64,000 bases of DNA from a virus (Duplodnaviria > Caudoviricetes), in the IMG/VR virus record IMGVR_UViG_3300010944_000263, positions 1-64,000 of that record; one strand, given 5' to 3'. Shown in pieces: positions 18,981-34,016 of the stretch. Position numbers and translations under genes: made by a program. The stretch's first letter is position 1, and every line of letters begins with the position of its first letter. The notes beneath the pieces are model-generated. The model was not told the origin of the DNA. It searched no databases and saw only the letters and a program-made list of their open reading frames with translations.

Positions 18981-21900
18981 CTACCTTGAAAACACCTTGC
19001 GAAGTTGCTGCAGCCGATCGCTCAAAGCGGCCTTGTACACCGGAACACCGCCACGCATCTCTTTAGCCGATCCGTAGGTAGACTCCCAGTGCTTAATCAA
19101 CAATCGCCTTGCTTCCGTCAACGTTATCCCTGACCGCTTGAGTGATTCAATCGCTGCTTTTTGCTCACTGACCGACTGATTGAAAGACTCAACAGACTTA
19201 GCGGCCTTGCGATTCGGAACGGTTGAAGCTGCATAAACCAAGCTCTGCTGCTTTTCTTCTCGACGCCGACTGATCTGAGTGAGCTGCTCCCGAGTCAGAT
19301 ACTCTTTGTACTGAGGATCTGGAGAATCGAACTTCATCCGCTTAAGATCCTTTTCAAACAACTCCTTTCGCTTTTCTGGAGTCGCTGTGCGATACTTCGA
19401 CTCAGGTCCATAGGTGCTAGCGCCCATACCATGCAGAGATAGTAGAGTAATTAGCGCGCCCTGCGGTATCCCTCTCGATTCTGCCGTCTCTCTGATTTCC
19501 CTGATGGACAGCGGGAAGAACAAATTCACTATCGAAGAGTAAGGCGTCATTGTCTGACCAACTACATTTTCCTCTGCTGCAATGTCGAACACAGCACCAG
19601 GTATAGGCGCCAACTTAGATCGCAAGAAATTACCAACAACCCCAGGAACTCCAGAACTGGCATACTGCTCATCTTCTCCTCGCAACGAAACCACCGTGCC
19701 ATCATCTCTAACTCGCTTCCCTGTTGCGATGCGGCTCGCTAGAACGATGACTTGCGACAATCCAGACATCGGGTCGATTCGCGTCTCACCAAACTTGAGC
19801 TTCAAGAGGTCGCTCGACCGAAGGTCCAGGCTAACTGTAGGCTTTTCTTCTTCGTCGTCGCCGCCTAGCAATCTGCCAAGAGCAACAGTTAGCCCCAAGA
19901 ACGACATGACGCCAGCAGCGTGCCGAGCATATTCAAGTGCAATCGCCTTCTTGACGCGACCAGACACCTTTCGACTTCCGAGCAACCACAAAGGCAACCC
20001 GAGGTACTGAAAGCGAGACGCTACGAATCGAGGGGCGAAGAACACCATATTCATCTGCTCTGCCCATCTCATCATCGGGCCAAGGTCCGATCGCCCTGTC
20101 GCCGCATTGATGTACATAGCGATTACTTTTGCCTCGTCGGCCGTAACTTGACCACCACGACCAAGGTTAGCAATCAAGTGCTTGAACAACTGGAAGCGGA
20201 TTCCATTCAGAAACGTCATGTAGCCACGAGCCGAAGCCGCAACAGGCCACAATGCGATTTTACTTTTGTCGTTAAGCCATGTTCCCTGCGCGCCGATTCC
20301 ATCTCTAGCCCATCGTCCCATGTACGCTTCTTCCTGCTTGGTAATCTTCCCTTCCTCTTCCGTGATTTGCAGGCCGGCGGTAATTGCAAACTGATACAAA
20401 TCGTCTTTTCGAATCTCTTCCGCCGTCTTGAACTCCGAAGATTTGCTCAGCATGGCTCGGTACATATCCTTCGCGACCGCTTTAGCCATCATCGGATGCC
20501 CAAACGCAACCGTACCGCCTTGACGGAACACAGCAGACGCGTCGATAGACGTCATCAGCGCCCGAGACAGGTGAGCCGTTTCTTTGATGTAGTCCCAAGC
20601 TCTTTCCCGAGGGCTCATGTTAGCCAATCGATAGTCAGAAGCCATTCGATAGAACTGATCTTTCACGTCAGCTAGCTCTCGCTTGAGATCTAATTCCTCT
20701 TGGCTTAATATTCGAACTTCTTTCCGTGGCTTTGGATCGAACTCGCTCTTAGCTATTCTCTCTTTGTAGTCTGCAATCTGCTTGAGTAAGTTCGCTTTGT
20801 ACGCTTTTTCAATCTGTTCAGGTGTACGTTTTCGAACACCAACCAACGAATCACGCTGAGCACGCAGAGCCTCAATGCGAGCTCTCTTAGCATCCAGTTC
20901 AGGAGTGGAAATTGGCTGAGCCTGCTTCTTGGCGTTGAACTCGCCTGTTCGCAACTGCTTTTCGAGGTCGGCAATTACCCTATCGAGAACACGATTAGTC
21001 GCCGCGATACGCTGATCCATCGTCGCTTCTGGCTTGGGGAACATTGCCTTGTAATCAGCCATCAGCTCATTTCTCTTTTTACGGAGATTGTCTAGCTCAG
21101 TGTCTTTGCCTGCCAAATCACGCTTTTGGCTTCCAGCAATAGGCTGCTTAGTAACGTTGACAGCCCTATCCAAGTCGTAGATTCTGTTTCGAAGAGCTGT
21201 CTTTGCTGCTCCAATAGCGGTCTTTAACTGCGTGTTTTCATCAGTAACTCGATACTTTCCGTTTCGCTTTTCTTGATTGACTTCTCGAATCAAATCTCGC
21301 AATTCATTACTTGGCTCCTGCCTTCCGAAGCCTGTCTTGGCTGGAGCAATACCCGCTTCCATGTCTTGCAACTTGGATAGCTGGAGCAACTGCGCATTGA
21401 TGTCCGCAATAATCTTGTCGTACTCGTTGTCTGATGGAGGAGAGTATTGCCCATAACCGCTCAAAGCGTCCATCGTCTCACGCTTCGAAATCTCGGGATC
21501 AATCTCCTGTAGAGACTCCCAAACACCTTGCAGCACATCATCACGCTCGGTAATGCCCGCCTCGACAAGGGAACGCTCAATCTGCTTGGCAAGCCGCGAC
21601 AAGCCTCTTGTATCGCCTTTATCCATCGCAGGAACAGGAATATCACCGTTCTCGCTCAACTCCTTCCAAGCCGTTGCAAACGCGGCACGAACCGAGACAG
21701 GAAGTTCTGCACCGAGATCCTTGCGGATGTTTGCCAAGAACTCACCTAGCGAGAATACACCGAGGTCGACGTACGCCTGAACGACTGACTTGGCTTCGCT
21801 AGCCATCATCTCATCTTCCGTCGCGTATAGAGAGCCAGTGTCGTCGGCTGAACTCAACGCAAAGACAGATGCAAACTTGTTCTTGAACGACGTGAGCTTA

Positions 21901-24900
21901 TCGACCGCCTTCTTGCGGATCGCTTCTGGAATCCGTCCGCCTTTCTTTTTGCTGTCCTCAATCTGAGCGTCAACGTTCCTTTGTCGCTCAAGGTCCAACT
22001 TCTCTTGGTTTGCTTTGGCAAGATCGCCTTCAAGCTCAGCCACCCTCGCAGCCAGTTCGCGAATCTTTGCCAACTGCTCTTCGTTCAACGCATTGCCAGC
22101 GTTTGCTACACGAGCCTTGCGAATCAAAGCAACCGAAGAGAAATCTTTAGCTAGCTCAATCTGACGAGCTACCCCAGCACGGCCCCATTCTCGACCAGCA
22201 GCCTTTGCAGCCTCCTCGATCTCAGCAAGAGCGTTCTGAATAATGTCCGTGTCTGTTAGCGCCTGAGCAGAAGCCAACGAGTCACCATTGTCCTTTGCTT
22301 TGATGAGCCTATCCGAAGCCTTGATAAGCTGGTTAGTTACTTGGCGGTAATGCAGCTGCATGACAGCAACTTCGATATTGCTCAAGTTGCGAGCCTTCTG
22401 ATTGATCTCTTTTACAAGGCGATCGCCAAGCATCGGATCATTACGGAGCATCGTTTCCGCAGCTTCCAGCCACTCTTCTTGCGTCTCCGAAGCGACGTCC
22501 ACTAAGCCTGGGACACCTCGCCGGAACCGAAGCTCATTGACAACTTCGTTCTTGATACTGGTAACGAAGTCATCATTTTTTGACAGGCTGTCAGCACTTT
22601 CGATATCGCCACTTCGCTGCACCAATTTGTCAAAAAGGGCACGCACTTCGCTTGGCAATGGACCGCCAGTGATTTGCTGAATGTTTCGGTAAACACCCTG
22701 CATCCAGCGAGCAATCTTCTGGAACAATCCTTTCAGTCCGCTGCTAGGAGGATCGATTCCTTCGAACCAGTACTGCTCCCACATCTTGGCGAACTTCTCT
22801 TCGTTCTCAACCTTCCAGACGCCGTTCTCGACGCCAATCTCCTTCTCCAGTGCGATGATTTCGGAATCCGTAATTCCAGCCCGTTCGCTTTGAGGAACCC
22901 TGCGATTGAGCAGGAATCGACGCAACGGGTGGGCAATCTCATGGATGAACGTGGACACGTCCGCTTTGTCCGTTGCACCGATGATGGCTCTGGTCGCACT
23001 GATAAACGATGTCCAACCCTTGATGTAGTCGCCTCCCCCTTGGAGAGCCATTTCCTCCAGCTTCTTCGGAACAGGCGAACCGAACGGAGCAAAACCAACC
23101 TTGTCGAACGAAAGACCAACACGCTCCATGATGTCGAGCGCCGCGTTAATCTGCTCATCGGACAGGCTAGAACTCGGGAACGCTGCCCTAGCCATCGAAA
23201 AGACTTGTTCTCGAGTTACGCCGGGAGTACCCAGGACATCGCTTGTGCTGCGAACGCCTGCGAATCCGGCAATCTGAGCCACCAGCCGCAAATAGGGTCC
23301 AATTTCGCGTGTACGACGTTCTCCGAGCGACTTGACCGAATACGCGACCAGTTTGTCGAACGAGTTTATGTTGGCGTCCATCGCAGCCATGGCGATATCG
23401 ATAGCCTGCTTCTCGATAGTCGAGTCAACGTCACCCGATTCCATCTGAGCAAGGTCGGCCGGAAGATCGCTCAACTTGTTTCCAAGGTCAGGGTTTTTAT
23501 GGAAGCTACGAAGTTCTTCTAGGTTTTTGAATATTGGCTCGCCTTGTTCATCGAGCACCTTATCAGCTCGAACGGCTACCGTATCAACACCGTCTTCATA
23601 CAAAACGTGCGTGTCAGACCTATACCCGGAAACAGCGTGCTCTTCCAATTCGAACTTGGCACCATCTGAAGACTCTTCGCCGGTTACTCTTTCTCGATAG
23701 AGCTCTGCTTGCATATCCGCCATAGCTTGCGGAACTGCAGGTCGCTTTCTCTTTTTGACGAAAATAGACGTTCCAATTGGAGCAATATTTCGGAACCAAA
23801 AAGAAGAACCTTCAGGATTAGACTCCAGTTCCGCAACCAACGCTTTTAGCTTAGCTACTTTCGCGTCTAGTTGTTGCTGCCTTACGAACGGAAGTTTCGC
23901 TGACTCATCCGCAGATTTAACAAAAGACTCCTTTTTAGCTTTTTCAGCTTTGCGAGCATCAATTCTCTTTCCAACGTTTCGCAACACACCATCCATACTA
24001 GCAAACGACGGATTGATTTCGAGAAGCATCTTTTCAGCGTGCAACTGACCACCGCTTATGAAAATGCTTACGCCTCTATACTCAGCAACCTTTCGCTTGT
24101 CAGACGCTTTTACGCGATCCTCGGTCGATTGCGTACGTCCATATCTCTCGACAATCATCTCCAGAGCGTCCGTAATAGCCTCAGCCCCAGAGATGTTCTT
24201 ATCAGCAACCTTTATCAAGTCGCTCAACACCATCGTAGGCTCAACGGACTTGCCTGACTCTGATTTTTGAGGACGTGAATCCTGGTATGCCTTCTGAATT
24301 GCAGACAGATCATCAATCTCTCTTGTAAGACGAGGAATGTCTCCTGTCTTTTGCTTATGCGCCTCCCAAAGAGAATCTTGAATTGTTCGGTAGTGCCTGT
24401 CCTTGGCTTCCTTTAACTTGACGATTTCTCTTTCGAGACGGAATCGCTGCTGAATACGAGGATCTCCTACCGCAGCCGAAAACGTCGCTTCAAAATCTCC
24501 TTCGCCTTCTTCATCCATATCGACATCACTCATGTCGATAATTCGCTCGTCTCCTTTATGGTGCATGAATCGATTGATAAACCGATCCTTTGTCAAAAGA
24601 ACCTGCCATCGTCGACCGTCCTGCGGTCCTTCTGTCAGATACCGATGCTCGTGAACAGTGTTCCATCTGTTTCCTTGCCGGAATCCTCGACCGTTTCTTT
24701 GCTCAAGAGCTCCTGGCATCCAAGGAGCATCTAAATGGTGCATGGCAACAAGATTCTCCTGCGCATTGACACCAGTACCTAACGTCTCCGTTCCGCCAAT
24801 CGCGAAACGGATTTCACCCCTGTTCATTGCACGAGCTGCTTCCGCTCTCTGCTCTTTATTCATGTTTGAGAACAAGGCAATTTCACTTTCAGGAACACCT

Positions 24901-27900
24901 TCTTCCATCAGACGACGCTTAATCTCCTTACCCAAGTTGAAAATCTTGACGTTTTCAGTGATAGGCTTTCCATCGTTGTCTCTTCCAACAACCCGCTTTG
25001 CAGAATCTTTATGCCCCATCTCCATGAATATCATCTGCGTGGCTTTAGGATGCGAATAGTAGTAATCCATCGCATTCACAAGCATCTTGTTGATCTTCAA
25101 CCTTGGATCGCGAGGATCCACAAGACTAGCATCTACCCCATCCATCAAGCGAGGATCAAGAGCCAGCTTCACGCCTTCGCTATTGAGAACCAAAGGCATG
25201 TACTCTCTTGTTCGAAGAAGCTCAAACTTCGCTTTGCCTGTTGCTTGCTTAAGCGTCCTGTACCGCTCCTTTAAGTTTTCGCTCATCAGCTTTTGAATCG
25301 GCATCATCTGCAGCGTTTCGTTATGCACTTCCTTGTATGGACGACCGACAACAGGCTCTCCCTCTTCAATTCTTCCATCTTTTGTTGGTCGCGGAACAAA
25401 CTCCGGCATGTCGCTCCCGAAAACCGTATCCATGTACTGTCCGATAGATGCTCGCAATTCCGGAAGGTTTACAAAGCTAGTTAGGCGCACAAACTCTTCG
25501 TACGTTCCGCCAACAGACAGTTCGTCGCTCGTTTCCGCAGTAGCAAACGTGTTGAACCATCCATCCCAATCCTTTACTCCAACTGCTTGCATTTCATCAG
25601 GCATGATGAATCGCTGCATGTTATAGATTTCATTCAAAGTGTTTGTGACTGGAGTTCCGGTAAACAAAAACACTCCCCGTCCATTTTGCGTCCCGCGAAT
25701 GTAGTCAGACAGAAGCATTAGTGAATTGCCAATGTTACTCGACTGCTTATTCAGCCCCTTTACTTGCTGACGAGTAGCAATAGGAATTTTTTTGAAAATA
25801 TGCGCCTCGTCGACCATGAGCATATCAACACCCATGTCTTCAATGAAAATAGTAGATTCGCTAGCGGAATCCGCCTGAGCTTCTCGAATGCGCTCTCGCA
25901 AACGGAGGCGTTCCTTAACAAGCTCTTTCGCGGTTCTTTGCTTGAGCTTCTTCAAATCGTCGTCGTCTATGTTGTCTAAGTTCTCTGGCATACTGCCTTT
26001 GAACGGACTGTCGTCTTCATTGAAAGCCTCAAGCGCTGCAGCTTCCAATTGATCCATTTGCTCTTGAAGAAGCTTTTCAAGCGTCTCAGGGCGCATCTTC
26101 AGCTTATCAACAAGCGAGTGTGGAATCACAATCAAATCCCAATCCTCGGTAGCGATAGAAGCCATTGCCTGACCTTTATTCTTCGAGTCGAGATTGTCAA
26201 CATAAAGAATCTTGGCTCCAGGATAGGCTTCCTGTGCTTCTCTATACACCGCTTGCGAGTTTGCATTATGCGCAAACAACACAGGCTTGTTGGCTAAGCG
26301 AAGCCGGCGAGACTCTATTGCCAAGGCTGCCATAGTAAGCGTCTTGCCTGTACCGACCTCGTGCGCGTACAGCCCTTTCCCTGAAACAATTCCACGCCAA
26401 ACAGCCGCTTCTTGGTGCTTTCGAAGCGAAAAAGGATCTTCTCCCCTCTGTAACGCAAGACCTTCAAACAGCAAAGGAACCTTTACTTTGTTCCAATCTG
26501 GAGTTGCCACAGATCGGTGATCTTCGTTGTACGCTTGAGACAGCCTTGCAATTCGGTCGGGAGTTTGCCAAATCCAATCCTTGAACTTGTCTTTCAATTC
26601 GTCAATCTTGGCGTTAGCTTCAAACGTCGCCTCTTCGTCCTTGACGTTGTTTCCTTCTGCATCTTTATAGAAAACGGAAACACGACCGTTATTCATTGCC
26701 GCAGAAACCATCTTCGAAAACGGAACTTCCATGTGTCCGTGAGTCACAACTGCTGGAGAATTGTTTACCGATCCAGCGAAGTCTACCTTCCACCCTCGAA
26801 TAGCCTTTAGCACTCTGGTGTTTTTCGGATCCTCTCCCAATAGGTCAGCAACAAACTGCGTGTAATCCTCCGCTGGAATCCAGGGAGCGCCCATGCTTAC
26901 TTGAATTTGGTTGTAAACAAGAGGCTCTGGCATGACAGATTTTGCCGCTTCGATAGATCGCTCGAGCCCATTCACGCCTTCGTTCTTCGCAGCTTCGAGC
27001 TGACGAATCTTTCTTGCCATATTCCCTGAGAGGAATACATCCGCAGCGTCATATAGGTCTTCGCCAGTCTTGTAGATCAACCCTTCTTTCTCAAGAACAG
27101 CAATCACGTCAGCTTTCGGCATCTGCGCAGACTTCGCAACAGCATCCCAGTCAATATCCACGGAGTTGTTACGAGCCAATGCGAAAGCATCGATAGGGTT
27201 CAGTTTTTCGTTTACGCGAGGTGGCTGACGAACAGTCGTCTTGGTAAAAACAGGACGCTTCTCGTACTCTCCGTTCGCTGTTTTCATCTCCAAAGACGCT
27301 ACCGCGTTAGCTATCGCATCGCCAGAAGCCTTGAGATAACCGATAGCCTTACTTTCGGTAATTGGACCGTATTTGCCTATGAACGCATCGTAAAACTGAT
27401 TGAGCTGCTTTCGCTGCTCAGCCGCATCCTCACCCCTGCCCTGCAATTCAAGCACTTGCTCAAGAGAGTCGCGAACTTTAAGAAGCGAAACCATCTCGTC
27501 ACGAATCTTTTTGACAGTCTCTGGCTTGCTCCCAGCGCGGTACCAATTGACGTACTCTTTGAGAGGCATCAACTGCTCGCCCTTGGCAATGTACAGTTCA
27601 TCACCCTGATGAATAACTGTGTTCTGCCGAAGTTTCTTTTCGTTTGCTCTCTCTCTTCCTTCGTTCGCTGTCCTTTCAGTATTCAAAATGTTTTCAGGGA
27701 CTGACTCGATCGCTTTCTGCCATCTTTCAGCCAAGTCAGAAGGCTTGTCGACAATCATGCCAGGACGACCACTCGTTGTGCCGTTACCATAGTTGATCGT
27801 CCCCAATACGTTTTCTGGGTGCAGCTTCCAGTAGTTATTCACATCTACCTTTTGCCCAGACGGTGTATCCATCTCGATAACATCAATCCACTCCTGATTA

Positions 27901-30900
27901 ACAGAAGATGGACTCTCTCCATCTTTTCGCTTACGAATGATAATCAAGTCCGCAACAACCTTCGTCTTGGCATATCGTTCAAACGCACCAGTTGGGAATC
28001 GGAACGCTGCAATCAAGTCGCCTCTATCAGACAACTGTTTTCGAAGCAGCTTAGCCTCGTCCTTGCCGTCCATCGTCATATTCGAAGTCACGAACGCCAT
28101 GATCCCACCCGGCTTTGTCTGATCGATAGCCTTGCGGAAAAAGTAGTTGTGAATCGAGTACGGCATTCGATACATTCGATCGTGAATCTTGTAGTTACCG
28201 AACGGGACGTTAGTAGCCGTTACGTCATAGAAATCATTTGGCGTCCTGCTATCCTGATACCCCTTCTGTTGAACGTTGATTTGTGGATAGAGCATCTTTG
28301 CCATGCGAGCGGTAGCTTTATCCAACTCGATAGCAGTAAAGTTAGTTCGATCCATGATGTCGCGAGGCATCATGGCTGCGAAATTACCGATACCAAACGA
28401 TGGCTCAAGGAACCTACCACCCCTGAACCCCATCCTTCTAAGCATCTCCCACATGCCTACAACAACTTCTGGATCAGTATAGTGCGCGTTGGGAATCGAC
28501 TCCTGGGCTGATCGCCACTCTTCTTCACCTAAATGTTCTCGAAGCCATTCATTCTCGGACTCCCAATCCTTCTTCACCTTCGGATTGTTCCAGTTTCCTT
28601 GGAAGAGCTCTTGTCCAAATGCACCCCACCCAATGTATGAAGCAATCGTTTCCAATTCTTCCTGAGTAGGCGCACGTCCAGACTCTTCAAGTTCTTGCGA
28701 TAGCTCCAATGCACGAACGTTCCGAGCAAACTTGTCTTTGAGACCGCGACCAAGAATGATGTCAGGGTTAGTCAGATGAAAGTTTGGACGAGATGATTTT
28801 GGAGCTAGGTCTATTCCTGCTCCATCTCCTGGCTTGGTGAATCCATCTCCTCCGGTTTCTCCGGATCCAACATCAACACCTCCCGGCACATCAGTTCCGC
28901 TTCCGACATTGCCAACTTCTCTTCCGTCACCAGTCGCATCACGTCCTGATTGAACCGACTCCGCGTTACTATCGCGTAATCCTCCAGAATCCCTTGCTCC
29001 TCCAGCCTTTTCACCATTTGCGGGCTGTTCTCCCTCCAGTGTTCCAGAAGTTGCTGCACTTCCGGATTTTTCTCGGTCAGCGTTGCTTCTGCCAGTTCTT
29101 TCTTGATCTGGCTCACCCATCTCTGTTCTAGTACCATCTGCTTTCTCTCCTAAGTAATCAATCACGCTTATTGCAGGGTCAGAAACAATTTTCTGTCTTT
29201 CAAGAGCTCTCCATCCAGCTTCCATGTACGGCGCAAACTCTCTTGCGAAGTCGCTTCCAAAGTTTTCAACAATCGCATCTACATACGCACCAAACGTGTC
29301 TTTGCCTGCACGAACGTAAAGCAAGGAAACCTGAACAATCTTTTTAAGGCTATCCCTGTCTATCGTTTCAGCAGGAATGCTTTGAAGCAAAACATCAGGA
29401 TCCGGTTTTTGAGCCTTCAAAGAACGAATATCAGAAGCAAACTGCTTCATCGCATCGTTAGCCGCCTTCAACGCAGCAGCCTTTGCTGCCGCTTCAGTAT
29501 CGATCGGCTCTTTTTTAGGTCGTTTCTTCCCTGTCAGCTTCTCTCCTAATGGTTTCTTAGCTGCTGGAGCCTTGCCGTCCTTACGTCCAGTCCTTTTCTT
29601 TGGCTTCTCTTCCGCCAGTATCTCAGCAAGGACATCATCTGCCGCATCATCCAGCGTAAGTACCCTAGTCGACTGCGATACAGGGATATCATTTAGTGGA
29701 GGATCAATTACGCTCTTGATTGCTTCTGGCAATGACTCAAAAGTCTGATTCATGTCACTGAACAAAGACGCAGTCTTTTCACCGATTCCAAGAGCTCCAA
29801 TAAGATCCTTCATCGCGTTTCGGAACTTCGTTGGCGACATCTCGTATAGAGCATGAACCAACCCCGCAGCCGAGTAATTGCGATACCCAGGACCAGCGAT
29901 CAATTGTTGCTGGTCCATGAAATAGCTCTGAAGCGAACCGCCTGCTTTTCTATCTGCAACGTATCCGTCGTATGCTTGAACGGCTTCAAGCAAGTCACTA
30001 AGCAACTGCTTGCCATGCTTCTTGTCTGCCATGCCTTTCGCTAAAGGACCAATTGCAGACAGAACCTTTTGTTTCACTGACGGCGCAGCATCTCCTAAGA
30101 CAGTCGCATCTGGAATCGCCTTCGCTGTCAATAACTGTTCTATTGCTGACTTTCCATCTGAATTCAAATCGCTCGTAACTGGATCGACATAACGGTCGGT
30201 CTGCTTAGTGGTCCACGCACCATCCTTCACCAAAGCTCGAACAATGCGATCGGCGTGCTTTGGGTTAGCCATTGCGTCACGAAGACTCAACGTGTCATCA
30301 GACGCAAGAATGCCAGCAATCAAATCAACAGTACCTTCGCTAACTCGCTTAGCTTGCGACACAGCATCCGTCGCCTGTGACTTAGAAGCTGAAAGAGCCT
30401 CGTTGAGCAACGACGAAATGGTAGTCTTGTCAAACACCTCATCTAGCACTCGAACAATAACAGGCTCTTTTAGCTTCCCAATATCCTTTTGGTCGATACC
30501 AAACTTCTCTGCCTCGGATTGTATATGCGACTTGAGTCGTGCAGCTTGCTTTCCAGAGTATGCCAACTGCATTCCCATTGAACGTGCGTTACCACCAAGA
30601 ACGGCACCGAACTCATCTAAGATAGGTGGACCATCGATAGGAGACTGCGTATCAGACGTTAACAGACTTACCTTGTCCGGAAGAACTTTCGATATTTTCT
30701 CGACAGTCTCTCGAGAGTCCGCACCTTGCTTTGGATCGTGATATGGACGTTCGTTTTCTAAAGCCCCTTCGTTCCTGGCAAAGTTGCGACGCGCGTCATG
30801 AGACGGAATTAGCTTTTCGGCTTCGATTGCGTAGTATGTTGCTTTTCGAGTCTTTCCATCCGCTGTAATAACTGCCGTGGACTTTCCTTTGACACCAAAC

Positions 30901-33900
30901 TCCGATATCGGGACTCTATCTTGTCCCACTGTTCCTGCACTTGACTGCTTTGGTTCTTGTCTTGTTTCTGACTCATCGCCTACCTCTTTCTGCTTCGCCT
31001 TAGATTCTTCTTTTTCAGCGTCAGCAAGCAGTCTTGCCAACTCTTTTTCTCGGCTAATCAAACGATCATCAACAACTCGCCCTTGAGCTGCAATTTTCTG
31101 CCTAACAGAATCGAGCATCCCTCGAATTTTTGAAACAGACATTCCATCGTCGTTCTTTTTTGCTGGTGCGTCAGAGATTTTCTCTGCTGGTTTCACTAAT
31201 TCAGCAACGGCAAAATACTTTCCTGGATCTTGCATCGCCTCTTCGAACGTGACGTTCTCTTTCTTTCCAGCGCCGCCAGCCGCATTACGCAAGTAAAACG
31301 AAACGTTGTCTCTACCAAACTCTGCACCGAGAGCGCCAAGAGCAGCAGGATTCGTAAAGTGCCCAGAAACTTGACGAGGCTTGTATTGCTTCGACTTCTC
31401 GACGACCGAACGCAACAGGCTCCTGCCTGATCCCTTTTTGGCTCCCTTCTGCGCAGCAAACATGTCGATGTATATTTGCGACGTATCGCCATCGAAACGC
31501 AACGTCGCTTCAGCCTTACCTACTCCTGTGCTCTCAACCTTCAATCCATACGTGTCGCTGTCGTACTGAACCCAATCAGACTTGTTTTTGGCGACAGGCT
31601 CTACTTCTTGACCTCCGCGATCTGGAACTGAACTAGCAACAGGCTTTGCCTCTTTCTTGGGTTTCATCTTGACCATCTGGTCGGCAGTTTGCGTAACCAT
31701 TCGAGCTCCAATGACAAGCTCGTACGTTCCGTCTGAACGCTTTTTGGTGATTTTCGCCTTCTTCTCATCTGACCATGGAACGCCAACTTCTTCGCCAACT
31801 TCAAACGTAGCGTCTGGAGCTTGCAATGTGCTTTTAGGAACAGTGCGATACTTGGTGTCACCATCCAGGGAAACAACCACATTGTCGCCATCAAGGACCT
31901 TGAAGATTGAACCTACGCTGTCTTCTAACTTTTCTCCTGATGCTGTCGTTTGAGCGGGAACGAACACTCGTTCGTCTCGCTTCCATTGCTTCGCAGAAGC
32001 AGGAACGATTTCTGGCTTCTGTTCCGACGAGTACTTGCTCGCTAGCTTGTTCAAATTCTCAAGACCGACCTTCTTGTCCGTCTCGAAATCTCCGGTCATA
32101 CCTGCGCTGATTGACCGCAAGTCCTCAACTGATCGAACAACACCACGCTCTTGCCCCTTGAGAGCCAATTGCTCGAACAACGGAGGCTTAGCCATCTTCT
32201 TGAGGCTTCCGCTTTGCAGATCATTCCAAATCTTGTCGTACATTCCATCGACAACTCCAGCCCCAGCAGACTGCATCGATTTGGAAATCTCTTCGGAAGG
32301 CATAGCTTGAGACGCAGCAGGTGGAGTTGTACCACCTTGCTGCTCTGTTGCTTGCCTTGCTTTGAGGCGTGCCTTTACTTCTTCTTCGAACCGCAGCCTT
32401 TTCGCTTCATCGATTTGTCCATCGCCTTGCCCGACTTGGGTTTCGACTGGCTGCTCTTGCTGCCCTTGTGACTCGCTTTGTTGTCGTACGCCATTATCAA
32501 CTCCTTCAGTAGTGATGGGCTGTTGCCCAGGAATTGGCGGCACAGTACCGCCTTGTGTTGTCTGACCTGCAACCGCCGCTCGGCTTTGCTCCCAGGCTTG
32601 TACACGCTCAGCTTCTTCTGGCGCTCGCTTAAACAACGCACGGTCGCCAAGAACGATTTCAGCCCACTTGTGAGCACTTGGTCGAGTCTCGAGCGATGCA
32701 ATGCGAGACATCTGCTCTGGCGTCAACGGAGGCTGACCAGGAATCGCAGGAGGTTGCACCGGGGGAGCCGTGGGTGGTTGTGACGGAGCAGGAGGTTGTA
32801 TCGGCGTAGGAGGAGCCGCGGCAGGCATCGGAGGAGGAGATGGCTGAACGGGAGCAACGGGAGGCATTCGAGATGCTTCCTCGGGAGTTTTTGACAGCGT
32901 GTCAGCACTTTGTTCACTGGGAATTTGTTGGTTTCCAGTGAAATCACTATACGCCGATTGCGCAGCTTCGCCTGTCCCAAACAGACCGCCAACGACCGCT
33001 CCTTGGGCGCCAGCCTCAGCCCACTTCATAAAGTTCTCTTTGGTGAGAATCTTCGCTTTGGGATCGTTTATTCTCGCATTCACATCGCCAAGGAACTCTT
33101 GGAATCCTTCCTGAACTCCTTCTTCGCCGGCATTTCTCACCGCGTCCCACAAATAGCCAGCAGCCATTCGAGGACCAGACTTACGAGCCACTTCCGCAGC
33201 AGCCGTTTTGCCAATGAACATTCGCAAACCGGACGGAACAGCACCCAACGCAGCTTCGGAAACACCGGAAATCTGACCGAGCGCCAACGCACTCACTGGA
33301 TTGTCGATTCCCTTTTCCTTCTGTTCACCCCACATGCCACCGCCTTCATGCAGCGCCGTGGTTTGCGAGACAGCAACACCAGCACCAACCTTTTTAGCGA
33401 CAGTGTTCCTGACAGACTGCTCAGCCATTTGCTCAGCAGCTTCTTTCGCAATCCCTTTCTTGATGTACTGCTCAGCGACTTCACCGATGGCTTTTTTGAT
33501 AGCCGCCTTGCTGAACATACCAGCGATCGCACCAATTGGAGCCGTAACAACGTCTCCAGGATCCGGACCAGGAACCAGCATTGCACCCGCAGCAGCACCA
33601 GCAGCACCGCTGATTGCAGATTCAGCCAATGACGGAGCCGCAGCACCAAGAGCACCAGCAGCCCACTTGCCCATGTTGCCAGCGCTGCCAAATGCACCAG
33701 ATTTAGGGTCTGCAGAAAAAAACTTGTCCACCGTAGCAGGATTCTCAGACGCTTGACGCATCTCCTGCTCGTATTTCTTAAATCGATAACTAGCCTCTAC
33801 GGGATCTCCGATGGCAGACTGCCCAAGACCAATTGCGCCTTGCAAAGTCCCCTGCATCGAATCAATCCCTCGCGACAACCCTCGCATGAACTCATTGCGA

Positions 33901-34016
33901 CCCGAGGTATTATCTGCAGCCTTTGCCTTAGCCTCTCTTTCTCGCCTTGCCTTGGCAAGCATGACAGACAATTCGTAAGCATCAAGCTGTTCGGATTCGC
34001 TCTGACCATCTGCCAT
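18981..34016 (-). CDS. Giant (5011 aa) DarB-like polyvalent virion/ejection protein: GNAT-like, ddrB-ParB-like, N6-adenine MTase, SF2 helicase and HExxH metallopeptidase domains
   Basis: FLEPSFGIG (~28.4 kb) and TNVPFG (~28.2 kb); AHEVGTGKT (~26.35 kb), DEAH (~25.8 kb), TGTP, EQRNGRGFRQGN; FIHEIAH (~22.93 kb); LIPSHD (~30.8 kb). Confidence 0.9.
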   Translation of the reverse strand: MADGQSESEQLDAYELSVMLAKARREREAKAKAADNTSGRNEFMRGLSRGIDSMQGTLQGAIGLGQSAIGDPVEASYRFKKYEQEMRQASENPATVDKFFSADPKSGAFGSAGNMGKWAAGALGAAAPSLAESAISGAAGAAAGAMLVPGPDPGDVVTAPIGAIAGMFSKAAIKKAIGEVAEQYIKKGIAKEAAEQMAEQSVRNTVAKKVGAGVAVSQTTALHEGGGMWGEQKEKGIDNPVSALALGQISGVSEAALGAVPSGLRMFIGKTAAAEVARKSGPRMAAGYLWDAVRNAGEEGVQEGFQEFLGDVNARINDPKAKILTKENFMKWAEAGAQGAVVGGLFGTGEAAQSAYSDFTGNQQIPSEQSADTLSKTPEEASRMPPVAPVQPSPPPMPAAAPPTPIQPPAPSQPPTAPPVQPPAIPGQPPLTPEQMSRIASLETRPSAHKWAEIVLGDRALFKRAPEEAERVQAWEQSRAAVAGQTTQGGTVPPIPGQQPITTEGVDNGVRQQSESQGQQEQPVETQVGQGDGQIDEAKRLRFEEEVKARLKARQATEQQGGTTPPAASQAMPSEEISKSMQSAGAGVVDGMYDKIWNDLQSGSLKKMAKPPLFEQLALKGQERGVVRSVEDLRSISAGMTGDFETDKKVGLENLNKLASKYSSEQKPEIVPASAKQWKRDERVFVPAQTTASGEKLEDSVGSIFKVLDGDNVVVSLDGDTKYRTVPKSTLQAPDATFEVGEEVGVPWSDEKKAKITKKRSDGTYELVIGARMVTQTADQMVKMKPKKEAKPVASSVPDRGGQEVEPVAKNKSDWVQYDSDTYGLKVESTGVGKAEATLRFDGDTSQIYIDMFAAQKGAKKGSGRSLLRSVVEKSKQYKPRQVSGHFTNPAALGALGAEFGRDNVSFYLRNAAGGAGKKENVTFEEAMQDPGKYFAVAELVKPAEKISDAPAKKNDDGMSVSKIRGMLDSVRQKIAAQGRVVDDRLISREKELARLLADAEKEESKAKQKEVGDESETRQEPKQSSAGTVGQDRVPISEFGVKGKSTAVITADGKTRKATYYAIEAEKLIPSHDARRNFARNEGALENERPYHDPKQGADSRETVEKISKVLPDKVSLLTSDTQSPIDGPPILDEFGAVLGGNARSMGMQLAYSGKQAARLKSHIQSEAEKFGIDQKDIGKLKEPVIVRVLDEVFDKTTISSLLNEALSASKSQATDAVSQAKRVSEGTVDLIAGILASDDTLSLRDAMANPKHADRIVRALVKDGAWTTKQTDRYVDPVTSDLNSDGKSAIEQLLTAKAIPDATVLGDAAPSVKQKVLSAIGPLAKGMADKKHGKQLLSDLLEAVQAYDGYVADRKAGGSLQSYFMDQQQLIAGPGYRNYSAAGLVHALYEMSPTKFRNAMKDLIGALGIGEKTASLFSDMNQTFESLPEAIKSVIDPPLNDIPVSQSTRVLTLDDAADDVLAEILAEEKPKKRTGRKDGKAPAAKKPLGEKLTGKKRPKKEPIDTEAAAKAAALKAANDAMKQFASDIRSLKAQKPDPDVLLQSIPAETIDRDSLKKIVQVSLLYVRAGKDTFGAYVDAIVENFGSDFAREFAPYMEAGWRALERQKIVSDPAISVIDYLGEKADGTRTEMGEPDQERTGRSNADREKSGSAATSGTLEGEQPANGEKAGGARDSGGLRDSNAESVQSGRDATGDGREVGNVGSGTDVPGGVDVGSGETGGDGFTKPGDGAGIDLAPKSSRPNFHLTNPDIILGRGLKDKFARNVRALELSQELEESGRAPTQEELETIASYIGWGAFGQELFQGNWNNPKVKKDWESENEWLREHLGEEEWRSAQESIPNAHYTDPEVVVGMWEMLRRMGFRGGRFLEPSFGIGNFAAMMPRDIMDRTNFTAIELDKATARMAKMLYPQINVQQKGYQDSRTPNDFYDVTATNVPFGNYKIHDRMYRMPYSIHNYFFRKAIDQTKPGGIMAFVTSNMTMDGKDEAKLLRKQLSDRGDLIAAFRFPTGAFERYAKTKVVADLIIIRKRKDGESPSSVNQEWIDVIEMDTPSGQKVDVNNYWKLHPENVLGTINYGNGTTSGRPGMIVDKPSDLAERWQKAIESVPENILNTERTANEGRERANEKKLRQNTVIHQGDELYIAKGEQLMPLKEYVNWYRAGSKPETVKKIRDEMVSLLKVRDSLEQVLELQGRGEDAAEQRKQLNQFYDAFIGKYGPITESKAIGYLKASGDAIANAVASLEMKTANGEYEKRPVFTKTTVRQPPRVNEKLNPIDAFALARNNSVDIDWDAVAKSAQMPKADVIAVLEKEGLIYKTGEDLYDAADVFLSGNMARKIRQLEAAKNEGVNGLERSIEAAKSVMPEPLVYNQIQVSMGAPWIPAEDYTQFVADLLGEDPKNTRVLKAIRGWKVDFAGSVNNSPAVVTHGHMEVPFSKMVSAAMNNGRVSVFYKDAEGNNVKDEEATFEANAKIDELKDKFKDWIWQTPDRIARLSQAYNEDHRSVATPDWNKVKVPLLFEGLALQRGEDPFSLRKHQEAAVWRGIVSGKGLYAHEVGTGKTLTMAALAIESRRLRLANKPVLFAHNANSQAVYREAQEAYPGAKILYVDNLDSKNKGQAMASIATEDWDLIVIPHSLVDKLKMRPETLEKLLQEQMDQLEAAALEAFNEDDSPFKGSMPENLDNIDDDDLKKLKQRTAKELVKERLRLRERIREAQADSASESTIFIEDMGVDMLMVDEAHIFKKIPIATRQQVKGLNKQSSNIGNSLMLLSDYIRGTQNGRGVFLFTGTPVTNTLNEIYNMQRFIMPDEMQAVGVKDWDGWFNTFATAETSDELSVGGTYEEFVRLTSFVNLPELRASIGQYMDTVFGSDMPEFVPRPTKDGRIEEGEPVVGRPYKEVHNETLQMMPIQKLMSENLKERYRTLKQATGKAKFELLRTREYMPLVLNSEGVKLALDPRLMDGVDASLVDPRDPRLKINKMLVNAMDYYYSHPKATQMIFMEMGHKDSAKRVVGRDNDGKPITENVKIFNLGKEIKRRLMEEGVPESEIALFSNMNKEQRAEAARAMNRGEIRFAIGGTETLGTGVNAQENLVAMHHLDAPWMPGALEQRNGRGFRQGNRWNTVHEHRYLTEGPQDGRRWQVLLTKDRFINRFMHHKGDERIIDMSDVDMDEEGEGDFEATFSAAVGDPRIQQRFRLEREIVKLKEAKDRHYRTIQDSLWEAHKQKTGDIPRLTREIDDLSAIQKAYQDSRPQKSESGKSVEPTMVLSDLIKVADKNISGAEAITDALEMIVERYGRTQSTEDRVKASDKRKVAEYRGVSIFISGGQLHAEKMLLEINPSFASMDGVLRNVGKRIDARKAEKAKKESFVKSADESAKLPFVRQQQLDAKVAKLKALVAELESNPEGSSFWFRNIAPIGTSIFVKKRKRPAVPQAMADMQAELYRERVTGEESSDGAKFELEEHAVSGYRSDTHVLYEDGVDTVAVRADKVLDEQGEPIFKNLEELRSFHKNPDLGNKLSDLPADLAQMESGDVDSTIEKQAIDIAMAAMDANINSFDKLVAYSVKSLGERRTREIGPYLRLVAQIAGFAGVRSTSDVLGTPGVTREQVFSMARAAFPSSSLSDEQINAALDIMERVGLSFDKVGFAPFGSPVPKKLEEMALQGGGDYIKGWTSFISATRAIIGATDKADVSTFIHEIAHPLRRFLLNRRVPQSERAGITDSEIIALEKEIGVENGVWKVENEEKFAKMWEQYWFEGIDPPSSGLKGLFQKIARWMQGVYRNIQQITGGPLPSEVRALFDKLVQRSGDIESADSLSKNDDFVTSIKNEVVNELRFRRGVPGLVDVASETQEEWLEAAETMLRNDPMLGDRLVKEINQKARNLSNIEVAVMQLHYRQVTNQLIKASDRLIKAKDNGDSLASAQALTDTDIIQNALAEIEEAAKAAGREWGRAGVARQIELAKDFSSVALIRKARVANAGNALNEEQLAKIRELAARVAELEGDLAKANQEKLDLERQRNVDAQIEDSKKKGGRIPEAIRKKAVDKLTSFKNKFASVFALSSADDTGSLYATEDEMMASEAKSVVQAYVDLGVFSLGEFLANIRKDLGAELPVSVRAAFATAWKELSENGDIPVPAMDKGDTRGLSRLAKQIERSLVEAGITERDDVLQGVWESLQEIDPEISKRETMDALSGYGQYSPPSDNEYDKIIADINAQLLQLSKLQDMEAGIAPAKTGFGRQEPSNELRDLIREVNQEKRNGKYRVTDENTQLKTAIGAAKTALRNRIYDLDRAVNVTKQPIAGSQKRDLAGKDTELDNLRKKRNELMADYKAMFPKPEATMDQRIAATNRVLDRVIADLEKQLRTGEFNAKKQAQPISTPELDAKRARIEALRAQRDSLVGVRKRTPEQIEKAYKANLLKQIADYKERIAKSEFDPKPRKEVRILSQEELDLKRELADVKDQFYRMASDYRLANMSPRERAWDYIKETAHLSRALMTSIDASAVFRQGGTVAFGHPMMAKAVAKDMYRAMLSKSSEFKTAEEIRKDDLYQFAITAGLQITEEEGKITKQEEAYMGRWARDGIGAQGTWLNDKSKIALWPVAASARGYMTFLNGIRFQLFKHLIANLGRGGQVTADEAKVIAMYINAATGRSDLGPMMRWAEQMNMVFFAPRFVASRFQYLGLPLWLLGSRKVSGRVKKAIALEYARHAAGVMSFLGLTVALGRLLGGDDEEEKPTVSLDLRSSDLLKLKFGETRIDPMSGLSQVIVLASRIATGKRVRDDGTVVSLRGEDEQYASSGVPGVVGNFLRSKLAPIPGAVFDIAAEENVVGQTMTPYSSIVNLFFPLSIREIRETAESRGIPQGALITLLSLHGMGASTYGPESKYRTATPEKRKELFEKDLKRMKFDSPDPQYKEYLTREQLTQISRRREEKQQSLVYAASTVPNRKAAKSVESFNQSVSEQKAAIESLKRSGITLTEARRLLIKHWESTYGSAKEMRGGVPVYKAALSDRLQQLRKVFSR
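22581..22593. repeat. Core palindrome TGACA-GGC-TGTCA inside the giant gene
   Basis: Identical 13-bp core to the copies at ~14.19, 38.38 and 47.06 kb. Confidence 0.7.
28811..29137 (-). CDS. Overprinted 108-aa helical protein (+1 frame) inside the giant gene
   Basis: TTAGGAGAGAAAGCAG-ATG strong SD; folded-looking sequence lying over a low-complexity linker of the host frame. Confidence 0.65.
   Translation of the reverse strand: MVLEQRWVSQIKKELAEATLTEKNPEVQQLLEHWRENSPQMVKRLEEQGILEDYAIVTRSRFNQDVMRLVTEEKLAMSEAELMCREVLMLDPEKPEEMDSPSQEMEQE
30809..30976 (-). CDS. Possible overprinted 55-aa ORF (+1 frame)
   Basis: GAGGTAGGCG-ATG; MSQKQDKNQSSQVQEQWDKIESRYRSL... Confidence 0.3.
   Translation of the reverse strand: MSQKQDKNQSSQVQEQWDKIESRYRSLVSKESPRQLLQRMERLEKQHTTQSKPKS
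32375..32494 (-). CDS. Overprinted 39-aa basic peptide (+1 frame)
   Basis: GAAGGAGTTGATA-ATG; MAYDNKASHKGSKSSQSKPKSGKAMDKSMKRKGCGSKKK. Confidence 0.5.
   Translation of the reverse strand: MAYDNKASHKGSKSSQSKPKSGKAMDKSMKRKGCGSKKK

Follow-up and report, generated by a model that had tools for sequence, protein, structure and literature searches.

TnpV proteins (Pfam family PF14198; first named in the mobilisable transposon Tn4451/Tn4453) are all-helical proteins of about 100-125 amino acids (aa) found in mobile elements, and the role in excision (as an Xis) suggested for them is only a postulate (PMC3158075). DarB-like polyvalent proteins contain a methylase fused to an SNF2 helicase, a combination described as the 'dyad' of polyvalent proteins (PMC5512222), and the literature presents DarB-type proteins as being packaged and injected along with helper proteins (PMC12810830; PMC9144972; PMC5512222). 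Here we describe a small TnpV-like open reading frame (ORF) that is nested in the +1 frame of a giant DarB-like gene within a 64,000-nucleotide stretch of viral DNA (positions 1 to 64,000 of IMG/VR record IMGVR_UViG_3300010944_000263; this whole stretch is referred to as the window). From the sequence comparisons presented below, we consider it very probable that the nested ORF is a real, selected and separately encoded gene that shares its DNA with the giant gene.

Rz1 lies in the +1 frame of Rz, and the small regulatory gene comS lies out of frame inside srfAB, a giant multidomain gene of Bacillus subtilis. VirE1 is a small acidic helical escort that is encoded with the transferred DNA-binding protein VirE2. 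Neither comS nor VirE1 is known to have homology to the nested gene. The Rz1 genes of lambda and of the Bcep22-like phages are similar to it in that they are small, are wholly embedded in a larger same-strand gene of the late region and have their own start (PMC9144972), although Rz and Rz1 are similar-sized parts of one machine, whereas here the host protein has 5,011 residues and only its linker is overlapped. The overprinted genes of small viruses such as phiX174 likewise use two frames of the same strand, one of them with low-complexity composition and atypical codon usage (PMC8227390). However, the classic newcomer is the internal ORF, whereas at this locus the suggested newcomer is the linker of the host gene and the internal gene would be the older of the two.

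The Dar proteins of phage P1 provide a further parallel, although with no sequence similarity and thus as an analogy only. The P1 small proteins (Ulx, DdrA, DdrB, Hdf and DarA) are encoded near darB and are needed together with DarB for protection from type I restriction and for ordered packaging, and P1 Dar proteins have been shown by mass spectrometry to be virion-associated (PMC12810830). The giant protein of the window has a fused DdrB-like domain, but P1 DarB is without an upstream linker, ulx is situated downstream of darB, and neither P1 Ulx nor the whole darB region matches the profile of the family described here. A DarB-like giant protein has also been detected by mass spectrometry among the virion proteins of the Bcep22-like phage JC1, with peptide positions not stated (PMC9144972). 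In the literature we searched, the coverage of which is incomplete, we found no description of a TnpV gene nested in a polyvalent gene.

Two open frames in the linker of a DarB-like gene

The giant gene occupies positions 18981-34016 on the minus strand (5,011 codons) of a virus record that is 72,979 bp long and rated complete, and is classed as DarB-like by its fusion of an N6-adenine methylase to an SNF2 helicase. The nested ORF is on the same strand at 28811-29137 and comprises an ATG start, 108 codons and a TAG stop. Because 34016-29137 = 4879 = 3n+1, it starts at position 2 of a giant codon and is in +1 relative to the giant gene. The initial annotation had described a strong Shine-Dalgarno (SD) sequence 7 nucleotides (nt) before the ATG, and the SD-like element TTAGGAGAG is located there (29145-29153, minus strand), with its AGGAG core 9 nt 5' of the ATG; a TAG inside TTAGGAGAG closes the nested frame 5 codons upstream of the start. 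Over the nested span, the giant frame contains no stops, the nested frame only its own stop, and the third frame 10. Contigs from independent wastewater and activated-sludge runs carry an identical copy of the nested stretch, and one of them bridges 28477-29559; the ORF is therefore not an assembly frameshift. There is no informative polymorphism within it in contigs from four runs.

In the giant frame, which is the -1 frame of the nested gene, the same DNA encodes a linker rich in G/D/E/S/A and of low hydrophobicity (28806-29141, minus strand; giant residues about 1626-1737). This had been read at the outset as a G/E/S/D linker preceding the methyltransferase domain, and its composition bears this out: the 112 residues include 27 G, 12 D and 10 each of A, E and S, and 11% are hydrophobic, compared with 28% in the whole giant protein. 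The nested stop is situated just upstream of the N-terminal part of the N6-adenine methylase domain (28017-28796, minus strand; NVPFG motif at 28197-28211), and just upstream of the linker is a small helical domain (29127-29408, minus strand), which is fused in frame to a TnpV-like module in the protein P0006 and in phage PBC5.

The existence of the ORF proves nothing by itself. A stop in the +1 frame requires a T at position 2 of a host codon, and the hydrophilic linker is almost without such codons; the size of the ORF is within what chance allows in a stop-poor linker, and the giant gene contains four same-strand alternative-frame ORFs of at least 100 aa. The other three are located at 22733-23158, 32375-32701 and 33293-33697 (minus strand) and have 108-141 codons. 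We judge the nested gene to be real because of homology and selection, not because of its size.

A phmmer search of 1.8e9 representative sequences with the small protein finds 18 proteins of about 100-130 aa at E<=1e-3. For each of the two best apparently 'free' matches, the contig fragment has a second frame that is open throughout its length, relative to which the small ORF is at +1. The methylase region of the host gene has 38-88% identity with DarB-like genes, both in viral contigs and in cultured phages, and we gathered 80 viral contigs through this adjacent domain before scanning them with small-protein profiles. A homologue is present in 75 of the 80, in the +1 frame every time. The giant frame is open across the small ORF at all 70 loci checked and also, where it was read, at five loci added through the profile. 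The median distance from the nested stop to the methylase match downstream is 21 nt at the related loci. At one locus (L023) the methylase-helicase is a separate gene with its start just 85 codons upstream, and it too contains the small ORF, which argues that the linkage is with the methylase-helicase module. A TnpV-like ORF in a human gut 'Bacteriophage sp.' (L102, 770-1156; MT837363.1) is also nested at +1. The polyvalent ORF around it has more than 2,331 codons, with the methylase domain about 2.4 kb downstream, so that adjacency to the methylase is not universal.

The arrangement extends to cultured phages. By tblastn, Pseudomonas phages vB_PaeM_USP_18 and USP_25 have the ORF, unannotated and at +1, in their 4,900-codon gene, and its ATG is preceded at 6 nt by GAGG. 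Profile matches (E 1e-10 to 3e-12) are located at this spot in three further phages, LASTA of Klebsiella, PEp14 of Erwinia and Itty13 of Pseudomonas, and Bcep22 has a weak one. In LASTA, PEp14, Itty13 and USP_25 the giant and the nested frame are both open. As had been anticipated, annotators miss the gene: it is absent from the annotation of all seven cultured-phage records examined. In Itty13 (L096, NC_070969.1 3703-9470) the coding sequences (CDSs) gp01-gp03 are annotated antisense to an uninterrupted 5.8-kb DarB-like ORF, and the deposited annotation seems to have called antisense ORFs in place of the giant gene. Searches by megablast of the region against phages, and by tblastn of the window protein (P0001) and its relative P0030 against plasmids, gave no match. 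The profile also finds nothing at five distant DarB-like loci (L078-L080, L082 and L083, at about 2200-2500), where the +1 frame before the methylase is open for at least 60 codons and ends in a motif resembling A..RE...H.L; these frames may encode very divergent members of the family.

Conserved positions in the family alignment are W34, M41, L45, G49, A55, A80, L88 and E93, together with an acidic tail. One phmmer match, P0021 (295 aa), apparently contains four tandem copies of the N-terminal W-x4-P...L...G motif of the family, which suggests a repeatable module.

The pattern of nucleotide substitution provides further insight into which frame is under selection. Across all loci, diversity in the overlap at giant codon positions 1, 2 and 3 is 0.52, 0.53 and 0.44, compared with 0.30, 0.24 and 0.55 in the methylase region. 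The least variable site in the overlap is thus giant position 3, which is nested position 2, the inverse of the methylase-region pattern. Seven close pairs (85-99% identical) together have 175 differences, which are distributed 48/33/94 over nested positions 1/2/3. Changes that are silent in the nested frame but replace a giant residue make up 48% of those observed and 21% of those possible (a 2.3-fold enrichment), whereas changes silent in the giant frame that replace a nested residue are depleted (16% of observed, 29% of possible). When the nested protein is held fixed and its synonymous codons are permuted, only 26% of trials leave the giant frame open; when the giant protein is held fixed in the same way, the nested frame survives in 20%. 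Because both frames are nevertheless open at 70 of 70 loci, and because of the substitution pattern, we conclude that both readings are maintained. Judged from these sequence patterns, purifying selection acts mainly on the amino-acid sequence of the small gene, with the linker being kept mostly for its openness.

Codon usage bears on which of the two readings came first. Measured against the codons of the flanking methylase-helicase, the codon adaptation index is 0.63 for the nested frame and 0.37 for the linker frame (0.73 for the reference itself), and the nested frame has the higher value at 64 of 69 loci (p 3e-12). This, together with the free-standing homologues described below, suggests that of the two readings that of the small gene came first, its -1 frame having later been taken into the giant protein as a linker, so that the linker would be the overprint. 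The initial annotation had the dual coding right, both frames being open at 70 of 70 loci, but in calling the small gene the overprinted one it took a direction that codon usage suggests should be reversed.

Several points weigh against this account of the two frames. Codon usage does not separate them in this window alone (0.63 and 0.66). Plain pairwise identity is about equal in both (0.34 and 0.35), although this measure does not discriminate because low-complexity linkers align by composition; BLOSUM scores, the sole pairwise measure to do so, favour the nested frame in 73% of pairs. Translation of the nested gene is also inferred from sequence only. On the other side are the homologues detected by phmmer, profile and tblastn, an open nested frame, matching in position and in +1 phase, in 75 of the 80 related giant genes, and the substitutions in close pairs that follow this frame, and with these the initial proposal of a real nested gene is well supported at the level of sequence.

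A probable distant relative of TnpV

The initial annotation also drew a parallel with TnpV-like proteins, and the relationship that emerges is a distant one. The Pfam gathering cut-off for TnpV is 27 bits, and relatives of the window protein score below it: P0030 at 23.8, PEp14 at 20.7, LASTA at 18 and Bcep22 at 14 bits. TnpV is the commonest family among the weak matches of the 83 aligned members, 5 of which match it (best E 1.9e-4). The family profile matches P0030 at E 5.7e-11, and P0030 in turn matches PF14198 at E 4.5e-5, again below the cut-off.

Bona fide TnpV proteins are found in the same setting. In a Listeria contig, which was fetched through the methylase domain, the ORF at the same +1 position passes the TnpV cut-off with 29 bits. 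This nested TnpV is present in 95 Listeria plasmids, within a gene annotated as ArdC-like, SNF2-related or methyltransferase, and a broken big gene is the one setting in which the ORF is labelled 'TnpV protein'. Of 16 TnpV loci from a scan of bacterial genomes (Clostridia and Cohnella), 13 are at +1 inside ORFs of more than 1,300 codons that carry LPD11, GNAT or methylase domains, with scores of 90-106 bits for the nested TnpV where tested; many of the 13 look like copies of one element. The other three are free-standing. Accepted members of the family (29, 90 and 106 bits) thus occur at +1 inside polyvalent genes with methylase, SNF2 or LPD11 domains, just as the window gene does. In a free-standing TnpV gene on a plasmid of 37% GC content, the frame corresponding to the open one of the nested genes is interrupted by 7 stops.

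There are also differences. The window protein has an acidic C-terminal tail, whereas TnpV proteins of Firmicutes end in an AEE-hydrophobic motif, and tnpV of Tn4451 is free-standing. The family profile does not find the Listeria sequences, nor those of the P1 region. What weighs against membership is that the window protein has no TnpV match at E<=10, that a six-frame PF14198 scan of the whole virus record is empty, and that the assignment depends on intermediates. Scans of the window protein with Pfam, PHROGs and NCBIfam gave nothing meaningful. It does have the character of a small helical mobile-element protein (108 aa, five predicted helices, in a complete 73-kb virus record). We file the gene, provisionally and on its sequence, as a distant, sub-threshold relative of TnpV that has TnpV's odd genomic setting, and as a rather divergent phage member. 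The earlier parallel therefore holds for a distant relationship, with relatives at 14-24 bits and true TnpV genes nested alike, but not for the window protein itself, which has no Pfam match.

Fold and possible role of the small protein

AlphaFold2 applied to 83 sequences predicts five helices and a disordered acidic tail (predicted local distance difference test score 79, predicted template modelling score 0.64), a model that agrees with the compact helical protein first read from this frame. The window protein has an isoelectric point (pI) of 4.5 and a net charge of -12, and the family is mostly acidic (median pI 5.1), with 70% of members below pI 5.5. Foldseek finds no match for the model in the PDB at E<=1e-3. 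The best Z score in a wide fold search with VIA-align is 5.6, which is within helical-bundle noise, and the ESM Atlas scores, all <=0.87, provide leads only. The top match in BFVD is a segment of a long unnamed viral protein (probability 0.99, template modelling score 0.58, E 0.57), perhaps the in-frame form of phage PBC5 that is discussed below.

Because the linkage is fixed and because there is one domain fusion (P0006), we offer the tentative suggestion that the small protein may be an accessory factor in the producing cell, obligatorily linked to the injected or transferred polyvalent protein. Such a factor could assist packaging, as an escort or chaperone, or it could inhibit the methylase-helicase and keep it silent until injection. 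A broader form of the idea, which we regard as doubtful, is that TnpV proteins in general could be obligatory partners that escort or silence the methylase-helicase in the producing cell and are left behind at transfer. Against an accessory role, the predicted fold matches no solved structure in the Foldseek and VIA-align searches, and TnpV genes are also found free-standing with no polyvalent gene nearby.

It is also conceivable, although unlikely, that the small protein is itself an anti-defence or DNA-transaction factor, either an acidic DNA mimic with anti-restriction activity or an Xis-like excision factor. The acidity of most of the family, the need of carrier elements to survive entry into new cells, the free-standing copies near integrases or recombinases and the postulated part of Tn4451 TnpV in excision would be consistent with such a factor, although the last idea was, according to the same source, never tested (PMC3158075). 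However, one subclade has a basic tail, a late phage product would need to be packaged in order to act at entry, and the fold searches give no match to a DNA mimic or to Xis, which is weak evidence.

Production of the small protein and implications

To choose starts without reference to SD sequences we took the ATG nearest the profile N-terminus at each locus. Pairing with the anti-SD sequence is -6.1 kcal/mol at these starts and -3.4 at internal ATGs (p 4e-12), and the products have a median length of 113 aa (interquartile range 109-118). The number of ATGs near the N-terminus does not discriminate, Met being frequent (6%) in the family. Nested P0028, in a giant gene (L088), and free-standing P0030 and P0034, which lie near integrases, have a common GTG start and N-terminus, and the nucleotide homology between them (74%) ends at the borders of the small ORF. 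Free-standing homologues are detected at E 2e-15. Since nested and free-standing relatives share a start, and since the homology stops at the borders of the small ORF, it is likely from these sequences that the product arises by independent initiation rather than by frameshifting.

A promoter scan upstream of the nested gene found no promoter-like site, and the gene is therefore most simply read from the mRNA of the giant gene. In this model, ribosomes initiating at the internal AGGAG-ATG would read the +1 frame to give an acidic five-helix protein of about 12 kDa, while for those translating the giant gene these 330 nt would, in frame 0, specify a disordered G/D/E/S linker, which would join the N-terminal 1,600 residues to the methylase-SNF2 helicase module.

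An improbable alternative is that the small protein is a frameshift product. Ribosomes that have passed the N-terminal 1,626 codons would shift to +1 near 29140 and terminate at 28811, giving a truncated N-terminal protein capped by a TnpV-like domain beside the full-length giant, with the internal start unused or not the sole one. An SD-like element upstream of a shift site stimulates +1 frameshifting, as in prfB. Two relatives favour this alternative and count against independent initiation. Free P0006 has the pre-linker helical domain (E 2e-21 to that of the window) and the TnpV-like module in one frame, collinear with frame 0 and then the +1 frame of the window, and PBC5 gp22 also ends with a TnpV-like module in frame; that the top BFVD match is a segment of a long viral protein points the same way. 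However, an SD-paired ATG or GTG is found at the family N-terminus at nearly all loci, and nested and free-standing relatives use the same start. The distance from the upstream nested-frame stop to the start has a median of 19.5 codons over 66 loci, but at 13 of these, the window with its TAG included, the stop is within 5 codons and so there is almost no room for a shift site. No conserved slippery motif was noticed, without a dedicated motif search. Proteins of 351-2000 aa were searched for fused forms and yielded no example, although this is weak evidence. In PBC5 the same gene contains further frame breaks, and its sequence may have errors.

Both of these relatives have features of their own. 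P0006 (L091, 435-1253) is on a 2.2-kb contig, the 5' end of which translates like a tRNA gene region and may mark an integrated element. In Sinorhizobium phage PBC5 (L092, NC_003324.1 22372-28142) the annotation divides the DarB-like gene into two CDSs and leaves out the N-terminal region of the methylase; the upstream part of the gene runs in frame into the TnpV-like module and then stops, owing either to sequencing errors or to a natural in-frame form.

It is very improbable that the region contains three genes (an N-terminal protein, TnpV and a restarting methylase-helicase), with the linker untranslated and the openness of frame 0 incidental. The separation of the methylase-helicase gene from the genes upstream of it at L023, the split annotation of PBC5 and the choice by gene callers on contig fragments of the small ORF plus a downstream restart would all be expected in that case. 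But frame 0 is open at 70 of 70 loci against an expectation of about 0.26 per locus, and is open in Listeria plasmids of 42% GC content too, where the third frame has about 20 stops. The equivalent frame of a free-standing TnpV gene has, as noted above, 7 stops, the small gene at L023 is still inside the downstream gene, and a DarB-like giant is present in JC1 virions, with the reservation already given on peptide positions (PMC9144972). Finally, it is barely credible that the ORF is a by-product whose openness and conservation at +1 reflect only a hydrophilic, purine-rich linker of conserved composition. In favour of this, the T that +1 stops need at host position 2 is nearly absent from the linker, the giant gene has four other-frame ORFs of at least 100 aa, and the pairwise identities of the two frames are alike. 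Against it, substitutions track the nested and not the linker frame, the nested frame survives giant-preserving synonymous permutation in just 20% of trials, free-standing homologues exist, the helical fold is confidently predicted, starts and length are conserved, and bona fide TnpV is in the same position elsewhere.

The remainder of the giant gene has further recognisable parts. A ddrB-like ParB domain (PF18763, 46.9 bits) is encoded at 30444-30860 (minus strand), and the SNF2-type helicase core, with SNF2-rel_dom and Helicase_C matches, at 24672-26375 (minus strand). The C-terminal approximately 1,600 residues (18984-23816, minus strand) have no Pfam match at E<=1e-3, and this part contains an HExxH motif (HEIAH, 22929-22943, minus strand) and hydrophobic stretches.

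We return to the reading in which the nested ORF is a separately initiated gene. Annotation pipelines do not call it, and a protein conserved across many phages, plasmids and conjugative elements therefore goes unseen in databases. The existence of cultured carriers, together with start-codon changes that are silent in the giant frame, makes the two products separable. The locus would be a case of deeply conserved dual coding in bacteria and phages in which the embedded gene is old and the disordered linker of its host is the overprint, reversing the usual story. DarB-type polyvalent proteins are front-line counter-defence weapons, and a small protein that is genetically tied to them stands as a strong candidate for a component still missing from accounts of how they assemble, are controlled or act. 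If the doubtful view of TnpV proteins as obligatory partners is true, it would supply a Pfam family of unknown function with a role, and the placing of the linker over tnpV would act as a genetic lock, a novel mode of gene coupling in which recombination could not split the pair and the dose of the partner would be tied to ribosome traffic on the giant mRNA. Such a lock would have been kept from the plasmids and conjugative elements of Firmicutes to the phages of proteobacteria.

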